Below are positions 1,535-33,673 of a stretch of 64,000 bases of DNA, in pieces. A model generated the notes under the pieces. The model saw only the letters and a list, made by a program, of their open reading frames with translations, was not told where the DNA came from and searched no databases. This DNA is from a virus: positions 32,001-96,000 of the IMG/VR virus record IMGVR_UViG_3300017917_001839; one strand, given 5' to 3'. Both the position numbers and the translations under genes were made by a program. The number at the start of each line of letters is the position of its first letter. The first letter of the stretch is position 1.

Positions 1535-4060
1535 ATGCGAACACAAGCTGTAATTCTTAGTTCTGTTCTTCTTACTGCATGCGCAGGAGGTGGAGGTACA
1601 GTTAACACTAATTCGTCTGTTACTGTTCCACCGGTGGCAGCGCCTACTTCTGCACCTGCCCCAGTTGAAACCGATAATAGGATTAAGTTTGAACCTATTA
1701 CATTTAAAGAAACCCTAGCCAAGTACGGCGATACTGAAGTAACATATTCTGTTAGTTCTTTTCAGCCTAGCACAAATTTTGATCGTACTGACAAATACAA
1801 GATCGCCGATTTTGGTTTCTTTACTGCTACTGTAAAAGGAAAGCATACAGGTGCGTTTGAAGATCCAAACGAACCAATCCGTGCAGGTGTCTGGGAACCT
1901 AGTTATCAAATTTACGAAGCTGATATTAACGGCGACGGACACAAAGACTTTTATGCTGTAGAGTATATTCAAGGTGCTCGCGATGATGCACCAAAGTCTA
2001 GACTGCTACCATTTATCAATGACGGTAAAGGTCACTTTAAACTGTCACCAGAATCATTTGCAGATGGCAAGTTTGGTTGCATTGCATCGGGTAATCAATT
2101 AGGTAGTGCAGACATTAACAACCAATGTGGTTACTACAAGAGTCTAATCCGACATCCAGTTGTAGCTGATCTAGACGGTGACGGTCGTTCTGATTTCTTT
2201 TGGCCTACGCTGTTATATCTTAGCAAAGGTGGCGCACTACAAAATGCCAGCAATACACTGCCTACAGAATTCTTTAAACAGCCGCATATTGGTCCTACGT
2301 TTGTACACGACCTAGCCAGCGGTGATGTTGACGGCAATAAAAGCATCGATATCTTTGTTCCACTGTTTGGTACTACCAAGGCTGGCTACAAGTTAGATGG
2401 TTCAAAAGATCCGTGTAGTATTTGCAATCAGCCATTGCCATGGGTAATGCTATTAAACGACGGCAAGGGAAACTTTACAACAAATACTAATTTCCCAACT
2501 ATGCCAATCCTACAACAAAACCAATCCATTAATCTTTGGGCGTCTACCGCTACTATTGCAGATTTTGACGGTGATGGTAAAGGCGATGTTGCAGTGGGTT
2601 GGGCCAATCCCGGTAATGCAGAACACTTTGGCTATGTTAAAAACAGCGCCGGTATGGTATACTACAATGACGGCAAAAATGATTGGCGTGTACGTAAACC
2701 CAGTGAGCTACCTGCTAACTGGTATGGCGCTAATGGTCGTGCCAACGATATTGTAGCAATTGACTTTGACGGCGACGGTAAGATCGATATTGCATTAGCC
2801 AGCACACAAAGCAATCCATACTACGTAGGGCGTATGGTGCAAATCTTTAAAAACGTTAACGGCACTTCGTTTGTTGATGTAACCAAAGATGTTAATAACA
2901 ACACCAAATACGAACTTGGCAATGGTACGCCATGGTGGAATGGCGAAGGTCTACTTACTGTAGTAGACTTTAACAAGGACGGTAAGCCTGACATTGTTGA
3001 CAGTAACTATAACACCTACGTGCTAATTAACGAAGGTGGTAAGTTCAAGCTCGTTGACAACTTTCCCAAAGTTGGAGGCGGTCCAAAGGGACAAGCACAC
3101 GGCGCTCTTTATCCTGTAGAGATTGACGGCAAATGGGACTACGACTTTATTGCGTATAAGTTTGATGAAGGCACTGATACTGGTACTGCTACAATGTACC
3201 AAGTACTAGATCCGCCAGCGGGTACTGTTCCTGGTTTGTATGATATTATGCTTGACGACTTTACTCGTAAGCCATCAACATACACAACAATGGCAGCACT
3301 GGCTAATCGTGCGTATACAGACTTGTTCTACTACAGTCGCTGGAATACTAATAACGCTCGTGTGTTTAGCACATACAATAATGGTGTAACCACAGTAGGT
3401 GGTACATTTGGAGGCCGGGACGCAGGACTTACTGTGCTAAACGCTAAGTCATCAAACGTATCTCCTACAAGCGTATTTACTGGTGATACTGATGCTATTG
3501 GCTTTTATGCTAATCGTGGTAAACTGTTTACAATGTTTGGTTATAGTCATAGCAAACTAGCTGGTAGTATCGATTCTGAGTTCTTTGGTACTGCTCGTAG
3601 TAACACCACTGCTGATACATTTGGTGCAGAACTATCCTATAAGGATGAACTAGGTAAGTTTAGCTACAGCATTGGTTCACGCTATAACAGCACTGTGGTA
3701 AAGGGCTTCCTTGAACAAGGCGCGGATGTTAATTTGCGTGTAGCCGATCAGCATTACAATTCAGCTAACCTTGTTGCTACGCTTGGTTATTTTGATTGGA
3801 TTACTTACAAGGGTACACGATTCTTTTATGGTGCTGATGTAGAATACTTGCGCTACTTTTACTCAAGCGGCAATGATGTGCGTGTATCCACAGGCGGAAC
3901 ATTTACATCAGTTAAAGGTGTTAATCGTTTAAATAAGGATGGTGCCGCAGTATCGCTTAACGCAGGTGCATGGTTGAACCCAAATACAAACGTACTGCTA
4001 TCAGTTACTAATGCTACAAAGGATCCATCCTATACAGTAGCACTAGGCTACCGTTTTTAA
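1535..4060 (+). CDS. Lipidated FG-GAP/VCBS-repeat protein with C-terminal autotransporter-like beta-barrel, 841 aa
   Basis: Lipobox LLTAC followed by AGGGG; seven DxDGDG-like motifs; alternating beta-strand pattern in the C-terminal ~250 aa ending YTVALGYRF. Confidence 0.75.
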   Translation: MRTQAVILSSVLLTACAGGGGTVNTNSSVTVPPVAAPTSAPAPVETDNRIKFEPITFKETLAKYGDTEVTYSVSSFQPSTNFDRTDKYKIADFGFFTATVKGKHTGAFEDPNEPIRAGVWEPSYQIYEADINGDGHKDFYAVEYIQGARDDAPKSRLLPFINDGKGHFKLSPESFADGKFGCIASGNQLGSADINNQCGYYKSLIRHPVVADLDGDGRSDFFWPTLLYLSKGGALQNASNTLPTEFFKQPHIGPTFVHDLASGDVDGNKSIDIFVPLFGTTKAGYKLDGSKDPCSICNQPLPWVMLLNDGKGNFTTNTNFPTMPILQQNQSINLWASTATIADFDGDGKGDVAVGWANPGNAEHFGYVKNSAGMVYYNDGKNDWRVRKPSELPANWYGANGRANDIVAIDFDGDGKIDIALASTQSNPYYVGRMVQIFKNVNGTSFVDVTKDVNNNTKYELGNGTPWWNGEGLLTVVDFNKDGKPDIVDSNYNTYVLINEGGKFKLVDNFPKVGGGPKGQAHGALYPVEIDGKWDYDFIAYKFDEGTDTGTATMYQVLDPPAGTVPGLYDIMLDDFTRKPSTYTTMAALANRAYTDLFYYSRWNTNNARVFSTYNNGVTTVGGTFGGRDAGLTVLNAKSSNVSPTSVFTGDTDAIGFYANRGKLFTMFGYSHSKLAGSIDSEFFGTARSNTTADTFGAELSYKDELGKFSYSIGSRYNSTVVKGFLEQGADVNLRVADQHYNSANLVATLGYFDWITYKGTRFFYGADVEYLRYFYSSGNDVRVSTGGTFTSVKGVNRLNKDGAAVSLNAGAWLNPNTNVLLSVTNATKDPSYTVALGYRF

Positions 4061-4749
4061 CGATAACCAATCTGCATAAATCTTGTGTACGCAGGTGTTC
4101 GCATAATGCCTGCGTACATTCTTTTATGCATAGGATACTTGCTAAACATTTCTTCAATGCTCTTGCAAGTGTTGATATGACCCATATAGCCTTCGCTGTC
4201 GTTGGTCTGCATAGCAATTAGTTGGCTGCTATCAGCTGTTTCAAACCAATGTGTGTCCATGTGTTCGCAACTGGTATTGATAACAATATCAGGTGTAGTT
4301 TGGATCAACTCTCCACCAGTTTCAAATAACATGTTGCTGGTGCATAGTGTGCTTGCATCAGCAACAACACCTTTAAACTTCCAACCATCTTGTACATAAC
4401 GCTGATTGAAACGTTCAGCTAAGTTGATAGCATCTGGACTAACATCAATACCGTATACACGTTCAATGTCTGCGATATTAAACAAGGGCTGTACAATGCT
4501 GCCTACCCAACAACCCAGTAGTGCTACAGTATATGTTTTGTTATACTCACTGGCTTTGAATAGCTTTTCCAGCAACCAGCTCTTACTGGCTAGCTGTCCT
4601 TTGCTGAATGCATCTCTAGGATAGCCACCATAGATGGCACGTTCGAAATAGCTGGGAGGCATAGCAACAAAACTGCTTTCGCTGTCAATGTATGCTTCCA
4701 CCTTTGCCCAGGTATTAATGTTGATTGTATCTATCTCGCAGCCACTCAT
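4057..4749 (-). CDS. Class I SAM-dependent methyltransferase-like protein
   Basis: Motif I-like LLGCWVG, acidic GIDVS, and DIVINTSCEH; start uncertain. Confidence 0.6.
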   Translation of the reverse strand: MSGCEIDTININTWAKVEAYIDSESSFVAMPPSYFERAIYGGYPRDAFSKGQLASKSWLLEKLFKASEYNKTYTVALLGCWVGSIVQPLFNIADIERVYGIDVSPDAINLAERFNQRYVQDGWKFKGVVADASTLCTSNMLFETGGELIQTTPDIVINTSCEHMDTHWFETADSSQLIAMQTNDSEGYMGHINTCKSIEEMFSKYPMHKRMYAGIMRTPAYTRFMQIGYR

Positions 4750-32441: not shown

Positions 32442-33330
32442 AATTTAACATATCCTCACTTATTCGGTTAATGGCCCATTTATTCATGACATGTAAATCT
32501 ACGCCTGACCATTTAGTAAGCATAAAGTCGCCCGGGCTACGTGGCTTTTCTAGATACATGATTAATGTGTTATCGTTAACTGCGCTGTGTACATCATCTG
32601 TATCAAATGTCTTATATAATGTAGTAGGTAATTGGGGTATACCTCGTTCTTGGAAACCACTCATCATATGTGCTGCTATACTAAAGCTATAATCGTTGCG
32701 ATAAAGTGTGCCGTTCCATTTATACAAATCTTTGTAGTATTGTGGATTATTTTTAACATGCTTTACACAATTAAAGAAACTTTCAGCATAGGGTGTTTTA
32801 CGAAAGTAAACTACTGTGGCCCAGTACATTGTAACACCAAAGTCATTTAAACGATTTAATGTTGGATCCTTACGTTCATACATGATGTCTTGGTAGCGCC
32901 AGTTCATCATTAATTCTTCGTTGTGTCCCCAACATTGATTTAGCGTATCGCTAAGTATCAAATAGTCAACATCAAGTAGTATAGTTTCGTCATACGGACT
33001 TAGATCATATGCATCACAGCGATTAACGTTATAAAAACTTAAAGGCTTTGCTGTATGACTAGTATCTTTGTAGATACGTGTATTTGATAGTTTAAACTCT
33101 TTGTCTTTTTCAACAACAATAACGTTGTTAATAGCACTGTTAATTGTTGCTTTACCTAAACTTTTTTCTGCATAGTCTAGGCTAGCCGGGTCAGTAACTA
33201 CAGTAATATTTTTAATGCCAAGGTGACGCTGAATTAGAAAGCTGTTGACTATAGCTAATCTAAAGTAATCAATTTCAGCGTTGTTGTGGGCAAACATAAT
33301 GATGCCACGATCATTATTTGCCTTCTTCAT
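32422..33330 (-). CDS. GT-A (GT8-like) glycosyltransferase, paralog of 30961-31824
   Basis: SPYDETILLDVD (DxD), RND, shared N-terminal RG...N..DY. Confidence 0.7.
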   Translation of the reverse strand: MKKANNDRGIIMFAHNNAEIDYFRLAIVNSFLIQRHLGIKNITVVTDPASLDYAEKSLGKATINSAINNVIVVEKDKEFKLSNTRIYKDTSHTAKPLSFYNVNRCDAYDLSPYDETILLDVDYLILSDTLNQCWGHNEELMMNWRYQDIMYERKDPTLNRLNDFGVTMYWATVVYFRKTPYAESFFNCVKHVKNNPQYYKDLYKWNGTLYRNDYSFSIAAHMMSGFQERGIPQLPTTLYKTFDTDDVHSAVNDNTLIMYLEKPRSPGDFMLTKWSGVDLHVMNKWAINRISEDMLNYVRNDL

Positions 33331-33673
33331 TGAGATCTAATACCTTGTGTACTTTGCGTGACTTACGTAGTTTTTCGTACTCAGCGTAATAGTCATTGGT
33401 TACTTCAAAATAACGACTGAGGACTTCATCGTAAAAGTCTTTGAGATTGATCTTAATAGGATTTTTATAAATGTCCAGTAATACTGCTTCTGTTTGCTTT
33501 TCGTCAAGTAACAACTTACAGAAATTGATCAATTCCATATTAATTGTAAATGTGCCACCGTTTACACTGTAGCTCAATAAACTTTGAGTTTTTGCTCGCA
33601 GTGCTGCTTGCTGATTATTCAGTGTTACCCTGTAATTAGCAAATTCTAATGCTTGAGTTAATCTTGCGCTCAT
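33314..33673 (-). CDS. Hypothetical protein, 119 aa; first gene of the tailoring cluster
   Basis: ORF preceded by GTAAATA (33679-33685). Confidence 0.75.
   Translation of the reverse strand: MSARLTQALEFANYRVTLNNQQAALRAKTQSLLSYSVNGGTFTINMELINFCKLLLDEKQTEAVLLDIYKNPIKINLKDFYDEVLSRYFEVTNDYYAEYEKLRKSRKVHKVLDLNEEGK

Follow-up and report, generated by a model that had tools for sequence, protein, structure and literature searches.

We found that a gene block of about 30 kb (positions 4057-33673) in the analysed window, a 64,000-nt stretch of an IMG/VR phage record (122 kb, 35% complete), encodes a glycan-tailoring cluster in which a conserved glycosyltransferase (GT) core is joined by nine radical SAM enzymes. 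We read the block tentatively, at slightly less than an even chance, as a cytoplasmic island for glycan assembly and radical editing that would act on virion fibre proteins. It holds 26 ORFs of at least 119 aa, all on the minus strand and many overlapping by a few bases, and three small ORFs (Table 1). The block is best explained as part of an uncultured jumbo myophage whose genome is about 340 kb long. A preliminary description made from the letters had listed about 28 co-oriented, mostly overlapping genes; their existence and single orientation stand, and the count is 26 plus three small ones. Its term "glycan-tailoring cluster" is supported by four GT-A-type domains together with sugar-nucleotide and decoration enzymes, and by the sugar-gene neighbours of the same radical SAM family in bacterial genomes. 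Taken as a whole, that description is confirmed in part: the block is there, but four of its labels (GT10, SDR, GDSL and methyltransferase) are either weakly supported or could not be reproduced; its interpretation holds in part, for glycan tailoring and for synteny with the fibre genes.

Table 1. Features of the gene block and its upstream border, with positions in the window.
Feature	Position	Strand	Assignment
g26	4057..4749	-	Last gene; methyltransferase-like (weak), PF08242 0.001
g25	4715..8791	-	1358 aa; ~12 short degenerate repeat units, then one full g06-like GT-A domain (1142-1358)
g24	8793..10334	-	NodU/CmcH-type carbamoyltransferase, PF16861 7.7e-55, PF02543 4.9e-42
56-aa ORF	10342..10509	-	Ends just ahead of carbamoyltransferase (g24) start
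g23	10653..11279	-	DUF6071 protein, PF19547 3.6e-8, 33.8 bits (cut-off 27)
g22	11276..12007	-	Possible SGNH/GDSL protein (weak), PF00657 0.0016
g21	11991-13295	-	N-terminal-twitch radical SAM, NF033640 363 bits
g20	13282-14436	-	N-terminal-twitch radical SAM, NF033640 330 bits
g19	14433-15659	-	N-terminal-twitch radical SAM, NF033640 408 bits
g18	15637-16881	-	N-terminal-twitch radical SAM, NF033640 361 bits
g17	16878-18206	-	N-terminal-twitch radical SAM, NF033640 299 bits
g16	18193..19320	-	375 aa; "GT10-like" in the preliminary description
g15	19321..20604	-	UDP-glucose/GDP-mannose dehydrogenase family, PF00984 6.5e-18, PF03721 2.5e-14; GATAAATA upstream at 20648-20655
g14	20673..21407	-	Sulfotransfer_2-like
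g13	21382..22074	-	Weak g14 paralogue; putatively sulfotransferase-like
g12	22067..23164	-	Most divergent N-terminal-twitch radical SAM, NF033640 172 bits
g11	23157..24569	-	N-terminal-twitch radical SAM, NF033640 303 bits; own starred tree clade
73-aa ORF	24569..24787	-	Between g10 and g11
g10	24780..25517	-	NeuB-family (PEP-condensing sugar synthase-like), 245 aa, PF03102 4.9e-15
g09	25510..27186	-	N-terminal-twitch radical SAM, NF033640 319 bits; tree sister subtype to g08
g08	27197..28732	-	N-terminal-twitch radical SAM, NF033640 321 bits; starred tree clade with IMG/VR orthologues
g07	28729..29304	-	191 aa; possibly SDR-like (weak)
g06	29301..30299	-	Divergent GT-A-fold glycosyltransferase, core; GATAAATA upstream at 30328-30335
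g05	30315..30971	-	218 aa; N-terminal helix pair, then two beta-sandwich domains; core
g04	30961..31824	-	GT8-like GT-A glycosyltransferase, core
g03	31821..32441	-	Class II aldolase/epimerase-family, PF00596 7.7e-29; accessory, lying between the GT8-like genes g02 and g04
g02	32422..33330	-	GT8-like GT-A glycosyltransferase, core
g01	33314..33673	-	119 aa; first core gene; 74 orthologous ORFs in related loci
Intrinsic-terminator-like hairpin	33692..33723	-	17 nt upstream of g01; 14-pair stem then T run
Near-identical hairpin copy	near 34020-34051		After last fibre-like gene

The conserved core consists of g01, the two glycogenin-like GT8 proteins g02 and g04, g05 and the GT-A protein g06; usual additions are a g08-type radical SAM enzyme, a second g06-like GT-A domain and a methyltransferase-like protein. 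Profile or fold supports three GT-A proteins (g02, g04 and g06), the number first proposed. A 37-orthologue profile of g04 matched glycogenin-2 and glycogenin-1 (GT8, 1.6e-5 to 3e-4), the match covering profile positions 3-110; D96 and D98 are invariant. The g02 profile gave no direct PDB sequence match; homology to g04 was detected by hhalign against the g04 profile (probability 99.7%), and the g02 DxD motif (D120 and D122) is invariant across 40 sequences. A GT-A fold for g06 is supported by its AF2 model (pLDDT 85.5), which gave GT2-type Foldseek matches (E about 1e-3) and VIA matches to B4GALNT1 (Z 9.4, rmsd 3.2, 139 aligned), STIV A197 (Z 9.4) and PBCV-1 A64R (Z 7.9); in the Atlas, its nearest neighbours are viral clusters named 'Glycosyltransferase 2-like'. 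The last 217 residues of g25 are homologous to g06 (27% identity, 2e-16, BLASTP). Thirteen GG-(V/I)-x-L-type units are readable in g25, as its earlier label of a 13-module GT protein implied, but only one full GT-A domain is present, at the C-terminus. Its matched length varies among relatives (query start 112 to 385), and single-domain counterparts occur in the Ralstonia phage RsoM2USA and in compact islands. The modelled g05 (pLDDT 93) appears to be a non-enzyme-like core protein: its best PDB match in Foldseek had E 1.5e-2, and the wide VIA search returned only generic Ig-like matches (best Z 5.1, rmsd 3.5, 85 residues). For g01, neither Pfam nor NCBIfam gave a match, and a 39-sequence profile found no PDB sequence below E 0.075. 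The GT10-like label of g16 was not reproduced, with no Pfam match, a Pfam family in 0 of 103 homologues and no PDB sequence match at E <= 5 for a 34-sequence profile.

Each of the nine radical SAM genes exceeded the curated cut-off (170 bits) of NCBIfam NF033640 (N_Twi_rSAM, N-terminal twitch), scoring between 172 and 408 bits, in agreement with the number given initially. To our knowledge, this family of iron-sulfur enzymes is unstudied. Five of the genes, g17-g21, lie in tandem (11991..18206); each of them has a separate orthologue in 14 related loci and forms a clade of its own. The g08 subtype is kept even in compact islands; g12 sits on a branch 2.59 long, without a starred clade, and its orthologue is absent from the 14 closest loci (L002-L015). 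Because four compact islands (L098, L101, L103 and L104) keep the GT core without any radical SAM gene, the radical SAM enzymes are accessory to that core, which counts against the proposed reading.

Among the remaining enzymes, Pfam matches make the carbamoyltransferase, UDP-glucose/GDP-mannose dehydrogenase, NeuB-like and class II aldolase labels solid. In g15 the N-terminal and central domains were found, and the C-terminal domain had no reported match. The g10 protein scored 46.6 bits against TIGR03569 (cut-off 399.65), with no second Pfam domain at E <= 0.01; g03 reached no NCBIfam equivalog cut-off and was found only in the 7 closest loci. The two proposed sulfotransferases fared differently: g14, which has no Pfam HMM match, is supported by the Atlas (Sulfotransfer_2 in 28 of 30 named matches; score 0.96, 191 shared features, TM 0.54-0.69 to such clusters), but g13, also without a Pfam match, is only its weak paralogue (1e-5 across 85 residues, BLASTP). 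Three labels are weak, namely SDR-like for g07 (no Pfam match; best real profile match a 3-oxoacyl-ACP reductase, E 0.031, 9-sequence profile; S111, Y126 and R130 invariant), GDSL for g22 (19 bits, cut-off 23.6) and methyltransferase for g26 (20.2 bits, cut-off 30; 31 orthologous ORFs). Profile searches with Pfam and NCBIfam found no nucleotidyltransferase in the block that would activate a new sugar, a further point against the proposed reading. By tblastn, the 73-aa ORF was matched at 55-88% identity in 2 loci of an initial set of 18 viral ones and in 7 of a further 80.

The 56-aa ORF is kept in the window, in all 14 IMG/VR loci with a carbamoyltransferase and in L108, L111 and L116, and was not found in L109 or five bacterial loci. 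The final ~25 residues hardly vary and end in ...RKRDPF(I/V)YR. In complex prediction the peptide and the carbamoyltransferase scored 0.72, against 0.00 for the best control, and the peptide is a predicted carbamoyltransferase partner. This conserved peptide with its predicted binding is new here, as is the fusion of bacterial relatives to TPR repeats. Of the 78 radical SAM loci from GTDB genomes, four of which are phage-type islands (L108, L109, L111 and L116), 11 contain a homologue of the carbamoyltransferase and 6 one of UGDH. Bacterial neighbours of the family are carbamoyltransferase, UGDH, GT4, GT2, epimerase and sulfotransferase genes; L113 has the order rSAM, carbamoyltransferase, GDSL-like, UbiA, GT4, NAD-epimerase, unknown, UGDH, GT2, and in L166 two rSAMs lie alongside a Sulfotransfer_3 protein.

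We infer the chemistry, acceptor and timing of the island as follows. The core would assemble a short sugar chain on a soluble acceptor, using host nucleotide sugars. A variable set, comprising eight further N-terminal-twitch radical SAM enzymes, the UDP-sugar dehydrogenase, NeuB-like and aldolase-family enzymes, sulfotransferase-like and SGNH-like proteins and the carbamoyltransferase with its small partner peptide, would provide acidic or higher-carbon sugars and edit the chain. The radical SAM enzymes may act on sugars through C-H activation, in oxidation, epimerisation, deoxygenation or C-C chemistry. As acceptor, fibre proteins of the phage itself, or other virion proteins from neighbouring genes, would be most probable. 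An unusual sugar decoration is the probable product of the block.

Several acceptors have to be weighed. Islands of GT and radical SAM genes linked to tail fibres are already published for pelagimyophages, and PMC7029224 reads those analogous islands as modifying the host O-chain. Such an envelope target is weakly opposed here by the lack of lipid-linked machinery, which, like the gene families and their conservation, is an observed property of the island. The Bac_transf, Glycos_transf_4 and Polysacc_synt families, covering the priming phosphoglycosyltransferase and the flippase Wzx, occurred in 0 of 4 records (our contig, relatives that are 91% and 66% complete, and RsoM2USA); the same searches were positive in 9 to 13 out of 14 genomes used as controls. 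A scan for 19-residue hydrophobic stretches typical of membrane spans was negative for every ORF of the block (g26 reaches only 1.62), and no membrane protein lies among its enzymes. DNA with hydroxymethyl-pyrimidines is another conceivable acceptor. Two matches to the thymidylate-synthase family occur in RsoM2USA; PF00303 had no match in any of the 3 uncultured records, one of them 91% complete and our contig included, as the preliminary description had noted for the window, and a thymidylate-synthase-type hydroxymethylase in none of the records examined. Since priming transferase and Wzx, thymidylate synthase in the uncultured records and membrane proteins among the enzymes are all lacking, a soluble acceptor is favoured over the host envelope or such DNA, by arguments that are weak for both. 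A further reading, outside the options first listed, is that the enzymes are directed at proteins or peptides. It is hinted at by the conserved peptide and by the TPR fusions (all 8 of the long bacterial ORFs that were scanned; TPR families in about 21 of 78 longer homologues), which point to protein binding, so that a protein substrate may fit as well as a sugar.

For virion proteins as acceptors, the cultured RsoM2USA offers a comparison, as it carries a compact version of the island in the same gene order (ORF349 is 34% identical to g08 and ORF347 32% to g26). Its island adjoins ORF361, a virion protein by mass spectrometry according to PMC8504454, where proteomics covered the most abundant gel bands only. 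For the related jumbo phage XacN1, PMC5852040 reports at least two virion glycoproteins as detected. Linkage to fibre genes is also conserved: homologues of the fibre genes (u1/u2) lie upstream of the g01-g06 core in 68 of 80 related viral loci, the remaining 12 ending at a contig edge, and gene content beyond g06 differs between loci. The synteny question posed at the outset, whether the cluster always flanks tail genes and varies in content, was thus answered positively. The statement that it directly follows the tail-fibre genes is correct in order, but the last fibre-like gene is separated from g01 by two terminator hairpins, nearly identical to each other, and by an unrelated lipoprotein-type ORF of 70 aa, and therefore co-transcription of the fibre genes with g01 is not evident.

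The cluster had also been said to share a late-type promoter element, GATAAATA. This candidate late promoter stands 15-45 nt before both g06 and g15 and also precedes genes for virion components, but its 4 occurrences in the window are about what chance would give (3.6 expected). Three genes that it precedes have no known function. Of its 12 sites in the contig, 8 precede a start on the same strand by no more than 40 nt, and one more lies 44 nt before g15; the starts concerned include those of g06, the baseplate wedge gene u6, the portal gene and a gene for a virion structural protein.

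The window spans bases 32001-96000 of one contig, an IMG/VR virus record of 122,294 bp with a CheckV completeness of 35%. This contig clearly belongs to a phage. The product of the gene at 58026-62189 matches the baseplate wedge family phrog_10646 from end to end (E 0), and its best tblastn relatives, at about 40% identity, are proteins of PA5oct-type Pseudomonas phages, Salicola phage SCTP-2 and Agrobacterium phage Atu_ph07. Further along, the contig encodes the portal, the baseplate hub and virion structural proteins. Since a related record reaches 339,794 bp at 91% completeness, the carrier is a jumbo phage of roughly that size. 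The island lies between the baseplate and fibre genes and the end of the structural module, and holds 26 ORFs of at least 119 aa (g01 to g26, numbered down from position 33673), many of them with short overlaps; its apparent gaps are filled by three further small ORFs. Ten island proteins had no match in Pfam, and for these we used orthologue profiles, folds and the Atlas; PHROGs also left ten island proteins without a match.

Positions of the island, its neighbours and selected features of related records (window positions for the contig under study, record positions otherwise)
Record	Feature	Position	Strand	Remark
Contig under study	841-aa FG-GAP repeat protein	1535-4060	plus	hydrophobic N-terminus; converges on island end
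Contig under study	island, 26 ORFs	4057-33673	minus	all 26 on this strand
Contig under study	56-aa ORF	10342-10509	minus	ends just ahead of carbamoyltransferase start
Contig under study	55-aa ORF	10493-10660	minus	one hydrophobic helix; directly after DUF6071 gene
Contig under study	hairpin + T-run element	near 33692-33723		
Contig under study	70-aa ORF	33763-33975	minus	lipoprotein-type signal; own ribosome-binding site; flanked by both hairpins
Contig under study	hairpin + T-run element	near 34020-34051		
Contig under study	6778-aa ORF	37678-58014	minus	between baseplate wedge gene and fibre-like genes
Contig under study	baseplate wedge family gene	58026-62189		phrog_10646
RsoM2USA (MG752970.1)	second, divergent thymidylate-synthase-family match	7739-8398		85 bits
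RsoM2USA (MG752970.1)	second NF033640 gene	126,888-128,168		far from island
G001 (339,794-bp relative)	radical SAM genes	329,633-337,516 and 4,617-14,231		split between record ends
Vibrio phage K566 (L001, OZ196521.1)	region with five distant radical SAM homologues	161,548-179,000		22-24% identity

Several neighbouring ORFs deserve a brief description. The 6778-aa ORF carries a net charge of -292, showed no internal repeats in a self-BLAST, and contains segments that are 24-26% identical to ORF361 of the cultured Ralstonia phage RsoM2USA. The FG-GAP protein at the other end of the island has homologues in the same position in two related loci (L002 and L006), and its Pfam line to TcdB_toxin_midN, at 22.8 bits, falls under the cut-off of 24.8. 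Within the block, the only membrane-like element is the 55-aa ORF, for which tblastn gave no match in the related loci.

To define what is conserved in the island, we scanned IMG/VR with g06 and kept 80 of 179 matching stretches. These loci present the same order: the giant protein, the fibre-like genes u3, u2 and u1, and then g01, g02, g04, g05 and g06, which we call the core. Homologues of u1 and/or u2 were found upstream in 68 of the 80 loci, and in the remaining 12 the contig ends less than 5.5 kb upstream of g06. The content after g06 varies. At least one radical SAM homologue occurs in 68 of the 80, and the number of these genes in related phages ranges from 0 to about 10, with the fibre genes retained. 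In compact islands (L098, L101, L103 and L104), g06 is followed by a g25-like domain and then by an opposite-strand gene, with no radical SAM gene and no carbamoyltransferase after the glycosyltransferase core. Further insertion points lie between the two GT8-like genes. A scan with g19, one of the radical SAM genes, gave 18 loci; 14 of them keep the g08-to-g26 order, and in those 14 each radical SAM gene has an orthologue at 46-95% identity.

In a collection of 50,697 records, RsoM2USA was the only cultured phage with homologues of g04 and g06. Its ORF354 to ORF347, downstream of ORF361 and fibre-like genes, correspond to g01, g02, g04, a g05-sized ORF, g06, a g08-type radical SAM gene (34% identity), a single g25-type domain (40%) and a g26 homologue (32%). 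The RsoM2USA study, which applied mass spectrometry to the most abundant gel bands, reports the product of ORF361 among the virion proteins (PMC8504454). Matches to NF033640, the NCBIfam model N_Twi_rSAM for radical SAM proteins with a twitch domain, numbered 9 in our contig, about 9-10 in the 91%-complete relative, 9 in a 66%-complete relative (one of them, at 212 bits, far from the island) and 2 in RsoM2USA. The split of the radical SAM genes between the two ends of G001 would be expected if this linear record holds a complete genome in permuted form. The K566 region also contains NAD-salvage genes and a gene annotated PagP, and no homologue of the glycosyltransferase core was seen there.

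Next, we examined the core proteins. A profile built from 37 sequences of the g04 family matched GT8 chains at 1.6e-5, over positions 3-110 only, the chains being glycogenins, which suggests that g04 is glycogenin-like. The core protein g02 is homologous to g04 (probability 99.7%), and the GT8 link of g02 runs through g04 only. The DxD motif is invariant in the orthologue sets of both, and neither single sequence matched GT8 in Pfam. The model of g06 (pLDDT 85.5) contains a predicted GT-A domain: residues 2-173 align with many GT-A enzymes at VIA Z scores of 8-9.4, the best (Z 9.4) with an rmsd of 3.2 over 139 residues, and Foldseek returned E values of about 1e-3. Two acidic residues of its motif, D64 and D66, are invariant in 25 sequences. 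The last 217 residues (1142-1358) of g25, a 1358-aa repeat protein, are homologous to g06 (2e-16), and the part before residue 1142 is built of some twelve units that are shorter but follow the same motif pattern. Judged from the model of g06 and from this homology, g06 and the C-terminal domain of g25 have a GT-A fold, with a predicted transferase activity. We rejected the idea that g25 is a multi-core precursor, because it ends in a complete GT-A domain of the g06 type and is replaced in the compact islands by single-domain forms. For the other two core proteins we obtained no informative match, for g01 in Pfam, NCBIfam or the PDB profile search and for g05 by sequence or structure searches; the alignment of g05 residues 33-99 with the Mu tail-fibre chaperone chain (Z 4.7) was too weak to use.

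The most numerous enzymes of the variable part are radical SAM proteins. The preliminary description had counted nine, and all nine (g08, g09, g11, g12 and g17 to g21) pass the curated NF033640 cut-off of 170 bits, scoring 172-408 bits over model positions ~1-397, compared with none of 14 control genomes. An alignment of the nine paralogues revealed invariant CxxxCxxC cysteines (C132, C136 and C139), an invariant GGE SAM-binding motif (G192-G193-E194-P195) and, in all nine, the N-terminal auxiliary-cluster cysteines C17, C36 and C77; C35 and C80 are additionally invariant within the g19 group. In seven genes a SPASM match in Pfam at residues ~3-110 lies ahead of the Radical_SAM match. The other two, g08 and g09, have no SPASM match in Pfam, yet NF033640 aligned to them from position 1. 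The paralogues are 19-30% identical to g19, and in a tree of 206 sequences no two from the window are sisters (9 changes for 9 rows). Eight of the nine group with orthologues of their own, taken from related viral contigs, in clades that are well supported, and g12 forms a long branch that is unplaced. Recent tandem duplication was thus rejected, and the low identity to g19 and separate clades suggest that the nine paralogues are old and functionally distinct.

NF033640 is a 'subfamily' model with no assigned reaction, and its description does not cover nine deeply diverged paralogues in one operon, as seen here. To our knowledge, no reaction is known for the family, and in full-text literature we found no paper that uses 'N-terminal twitch' of radical SAM enzymes. 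Among the NCBIfam matches the nearest named sugar enzyme is BlsE, matched by one paralogue only (E 0.0026, 17 bits against a cut-off of 400), and no BtrN model appeared. The enzymes do resemble the BtrN type in combining a radical SAM core with one auxiliary-cluster twitch domain in a sugar-handling context, and differ from it in that the twitch domain is N-terminal. The case for a sugar substrate is one of gene neighbourhood in cellular genomes, and TPR fusions in the same family speak for protein contacts.

To look at this family in cells, we ran a pattern scan over one genome per GTDB species, which gave 242 confirmed stretches, 78 distinct loci being kept. Most of these belong to Bdellovibrionota, Bacteroidota, Elusimicrobia and Myxococcota. 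Four of the 78 are the phage-type islands described below; in the others a homologue of the carbamoyltransferase or of UGDH is often close by. Counted over all 78 loci, a carbamoyltransferase homologue lies near the radical SAM gene in 11 and a UGDH homologue in 6. One Bacteroidota contig has the order radical SAM, carbamoyltransferase, GDSL-like, UbiA, GT4, NAD-epimerase, unknown, UGDH and GT2, another bacterial contig has two radical SAM genes adjoining a Sulfotransfer_3 protein, and the radical SAM neighbourhood in a Reichenbachiella isolate genome was uninformative. These sugar neighbourhoods favour, at the level of gene content, a carbohydrate role for the family. In addition, all eight long ORFs scanned in an Elusimicrobia MAG and one other MAG have TPR arrays fused to the twitch-radical SAM unit. 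Among 78 homologues of at least 715 aa, about 21 contain TPR families, about 50 (800-850 aa) contain SPASM and Radical_SAM families only, and none contains a glycosyltransferase family. The TPR fusions say, as far as domain content goes, that some members probably dock on proteins. Genes for such fusions stand in long tandem arrays, as many as seven within 16 kb and no other gene intervening, in L119, L123 and L133, all from one Elusimicrobia MAG, and in L128.

Another arrangement was seen in L112, an 83,861-bp contig of a Bacteriovoracaceae MAG. It carries eight consecutive radical SAM genes, which fall in the subclades of phage g08, g09, g11, g18, g19 and g20, with no glycosyltransferase core within 10 kb, and it could be read as the cellular equivalent of the tailoring set or as a mobile element. 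Phage-type islands also occur in MAGs labelled Gammaproteobacteria, Legionellales and Haliscomenobacter (L108, L109, L111 and L116), in L111 together with fibre-gene homologues. Probably these are phage contigs that ended up in MAG bins, and the labels therefore give no host evidence.

The remaining tailoring enzymes were identified to different degrees. In g15, a protein of the UDP-Glc/GDP-Man dehydrogenase (UGDH) family, the N-terminal (53.7 bits) and central (65.1 bits) domains are both above their cut-offs, and the C-terminal UDP-binding domain was not reported at E <= 0.01. The 245-aa protein g10 has a Pfam NeuB domain (56.1 bits) and stays below equivalog level, with 46.6 bits for TIGR03569 (cut-off 399.65) and 24.6 for PseI (cut-off 340); by these profiles it is a NeuB-fold protein and not a recognised sialic or pseudaminic acid synthase. 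The class II aldolase-family protein and the DUF6071 protein were firm by HMM search. For g14, 28 of 30 named matches in the Atlas were Sulfotransfer_2-like and structural matches had TM scores of 0.54-0.69; g13 is a weak paralogue of g14, linked to it solely by a pairwise match of 1e-5, and no HMM match to Sulfotransfer_2 was obtained for either. A comparison of g14 with a Sulfotransfer_3 neighbour in the bacterial locus L166 was set aside, as just a 15-residue P-loop-like stretch was common to both (E 0.053). Some earlier labels came out weaker. The GDSL and methyltransferase-like assignments have matches behind them, but under the family cut-offs, and 'SDR-like' for g07 goes back to a profile match of E 0.03. 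We could not reproduce 'GT10-like' for g16, which had no Pfam match at E <= 5, no PDB sequence match, no informative match in PHROGs, and 103 homologues without a Pfam family. A 28%-identical paralogue of g16, P0163 (383 aa), is encoded elsewhere on the contig, beyond the window. Furthermore, no nucleotidyltransferase was recognised in the island, which implies that the pathway must start from host nucleotide sugars or edit sugars after transfer.

With both Carbam_trans_N (145 bits) and Carbam_trans_C (185.5 bits) above their cut-offs, g24 is by sequence a carbamoyltransferase of the NodU/CmcH/TobZ type. The 56-aa ORF beside it has counterparts in all 14 IMG/VR loci, where the ORF measures 40-77 aa; the C-terminal ~25 residues are near-invariant in the window and these loci, and the N-terminal part is variable in length and sequence. 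The peptide was found in three of four phage-type MAG loci and was absent from all five bacterial loci examined. Among the 80 core-centred loci, most of which do not extend to the carbamoyltransferase, tblastn gave no match. We then predicted complexes from our own alignments, and the conserved peptide tail was placed on the N-terminal domain of the carbamoyltransferase with a median score of 0.72, compared with 0.00 for the best of three controls; the score expresses model confidence, and 58 of 80 solved complexes, as against 2 of 110 mismatched pairs, attained this mark. Contact agreement in these runs was at least 12% and the partner pLDDT at least 53.

Transcription signals were examined at the junction between the fibre genes and the island. 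Two almost identical strong hairpin and T-run elements lie between the last fibre-like gene and g01, and no comparable minus-strand terminator was found inside the island. With terminator-like hairpins in between, simple co-transcription of the island with the fibre genes is not evident. The 70-aa ORF between the hairpins has tblastn matches in five related loci and, together with them, looks like a self-contained inserted cassette. The T4-type late promoter TATAAATA had no match in the window against 6 expected, and was dropped in favour of GATAAATA. This motif has 12 sites on the contig, 8 of them within 40 nt upstream of a same-strand start, and precedes the genes for the portal, a virion structural protein and the baseplate wedge (u6), the core gene g06, and three genes of unknown function; a further site lies 44 nt upstream of g15, and another precedes the baseplate hub gene at 62 nt. 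Its count in the window is at chance (4 against 3.6 expected), so that it is placement that makes GATAAATA a candidate late-type promoter. Two sequencing runs matched in small shares (0.09 and 0.05 of sampled words). Contigs of relatives from these runs, at 85% likeness, fall in 26 and 29 of 30 bins and span the fibre genes as well as the island. The libraries may contain DNA, and this coverage is evidence of neither transcription nor timing nor habitat.

We tentatively read the region as an island for the assembly and editing of a soluble glycan, whose acceptor would most probably be the phage's own fibre or virion proteins. A fixed transferase core would carry a fast-changing tailoring set, and the radical SAM enzymes would be the sugar-editing catalysts. 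This reading draws on the conserved position, the candidate late motif, the lack of lipid-linked machinery and the virion glycoproteins reported in the related jumbo phage XacN1 (PMC5852040). A fuller picture is conceivable and distinctly more doubtful: a phage-made fibre glycan with sugars rewritten by up to nine radical SAM enzymes, a variable half evolving like a bacterial O-antigen locus, and a carbamoyltransferase steered by its dedicated peptide. In that case the island would act as a phage 'serotype' system and be a source of new radical carbohydrate chemistry. Alternatively, the island might convert the host envelope, remodelling LPS O-chain or capsule during infection with the lipid carrier, flippase and ligase of the host, and so block, for example, superinfection or progeny re-adsorption. 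Decoration with carbamoyl, sulfate and acyl groups is typical of loci for surface polysaccharides, as are the bacterial neighbourhoods of the radical SAM family. A lipoprotein-type ORF adjoins the island, and in K566 about 3 kb separate the PagP-annotated gene from a cluster of four radical SAM homologues. It is also how the 'host recognition cluster' of pelagimyophages, with GT8, UDP-glucose 6-dehydrogenase and radical SAM cassettes, has been read in print (PMC7029224). We nevertheless consider envelope conversion unlikely. Bac_transf (PF02397), Glycos_transf_4 (PF00953, WecA/MraY type) and Polysacc_synt (PF01943, Wzx type), whose profiles match in most control genomes, gave no match in four records (our contig, the 91%- and 66%-complete relatives and RsoM2USA), so that the priming transferase and flippase of a Wzx-type surface polysaccharide locus were found in none of them. 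Furthermore, none of the island enzymes has a membrane-span-like segment, the candidate late-promoter motif occurs inside the block, the core is as conserved as structural genes are and always stands beside the fibre genes, and RsoM2USA is described as lytic (PMC8504454).

The peptide could be another acceptor. The product could be a soluble glycoconjugate on this conserved small peptide, or on a free sugar or cyclitol, that is processed by radical SAM enzymes, glycosylated, methylated and carbamoylated, a logic resembling that of mycofactocin and aminoglycoside pathways. Its constant place ahead of the carbamoyltransferase and its predicted contact with that enzyme would fit, as would the fact that twitch and SPASM enzymes often act on peptides (compare the NCBIfam secondary matches). 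A conserved small ORF is part of a RiPP-type layout, but here it stands beside the carbamoyltransferase rather than a radical SAM gene, and no RRE-type or peptidase family was recognised in the island with Pfam or NCBIfam. In the compact islands, which stop after the glycosyltransferase core, both peptide and transferase are missing, and the stretch of RsoM2USA examined has no carbamoyltransferase homologue. Travelling with the transferase in this way, the peptide is probably a partner or substrate of the carbamoyltransferase alone and not the acceptor of the whole pathway. We consider a peptide- or small-molecule-anchored product quite unlikely. We regard as improbable a scheme in which the radical SAM enzymes act directly on the 6778-aa protein or on fibre residues, by cross-linking, epimerisation or oxidation, and the sugar enzymes form a separate decoration. 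The TPR fusions of bacterial relatives agree with it, the many long homologues with SPASM and Radical_SAM families only suggest enzymes in series, the block adjoins a giant structural gene, and a SPASM enzyme reportedly, from the title of one paper, makes thioether cross-links in protein (PMC13692751). On the other hand, the bacterial neighbours are sugar genes, in the island the radical SAM genes alternate with UGDH, NeuB-like and sulfotransferase-like genes, and the radical SAM genes come and go while the fibre genes persist. Hypermodification of DNA, with transferases and tailoring enzymes decorating the phage bases, is most improbable. The thymidylate-synthase family, the usual source of hydroxymethyl-pyrimidines for DNA glycosylation, has no member in our contig or in the 91%- and 66%-complete relatives (RsoM2USA has two), and the island is linked to fibre genes and not to replication genes. 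Tet_JBP matched in none of the four records, nor in any control genome, and hence says little. Phage glycosyltransferases that modify DNA are nonetheless well known (cited in PMC12619734).

Compared with known systems, the virion-glycan reading has several precedents. The capsid of chlorovirus PBCV-1 (A64R), the mimivirus fibril, mycobacteriophage capsid and tail glycans and XacN1 likewise involve soluble virus-encoded GT-A enzymes and no lipid-linked export, and we know of no report of radical SAM enzymes in any of these virion glycosylation systems. Among the many GT-A folds to which the g06 model aligns are those of PBCV-1 A64R (Z 7.9) and mimivirus R699 (Z 8.4). Searched with g04 and g06 by tblastn at E <= 1e-3, the phage collection gave no match in XacN1. 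Bacterial O-antigen and capsule clusters, which the bacterial loci carrying the same radical SAM family resemble, also combine a conserved transferase core with variable tailoring (UGDH, carbamoyl, sulfo, acyl). Unlike them, neither the island nor the four phage records searched showed a priming phosphoglycosyltransferase or a flippase, and no polymerase or transporter was recognised among the island genes. Mycobacteriophage virion glycans are cited in a moraphage paper whose available part does not mention radical SAM enzymes (PMC12619734), and in the literature on jumbo phages and radical SAM enzymes we found no paper on an island of the g01-g26 type.

The closest published counterpart is the host recognition cluster of pelagimyophages and cyanomyophages (Zaragoza-Solas et al. 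2020, PMC7029224). It is likewise a hypervariable island in the structural region beside the tail fibres, its described content likewise includes GT8-type, UDP-glucose 6-dehydrogenase and radical SAM cassettes, and this content differs between close relatives; the phages studied in that paper are T4-like ones of SAR11 and picocyanobacteria, and the genes are interpreted there as modifying the host O-chain. By position and variable content our island falls under the same definition, in a comparison that leaves out the landmarks VrlC and gp14 and spans a different lineage. This kind of tail-fibre-linked island has been in print since 2020 for T4-like marine phages (PMC7029224). Here the lineage is that of a jumbo phage, the radical SAM family is identified as NF033640 and a fixed glycosyltransferase core is defined. 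Added or independently confirmed are the NF033640 identity of the nine enzymes, a division of the island into core and variable parts that is based on 80 loci, and the presence of a compact form in a cultured phage. The same holds for the negative outcome of the searches for genes of export and of hydroxymethylation, for the TPR fusions and for the prediction for peptide and carbamoyltransferase.

If the favoured reading is true, the production and chemical editing of a sugar coat of their own would take up 5-10% of the genome of large aquatic and soil phages. Nine ancient paralogues in one operon would promise several new radical reactions on carbohydrates, in a family that is also common in predatory Bdellovibrionota, Bacteroidota and Elusimicrobia. 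The chemistry of the nine paralogues is unexplored and now testable, and the function given here for the island is an inferred one. The compact island of the cultured RsoM2USA (ORF347-354) brings to the bench the question of whether the target is the host surface, the virion or something else, and the answer bears also on how the 'host recognition clusters' of marine phages are read.
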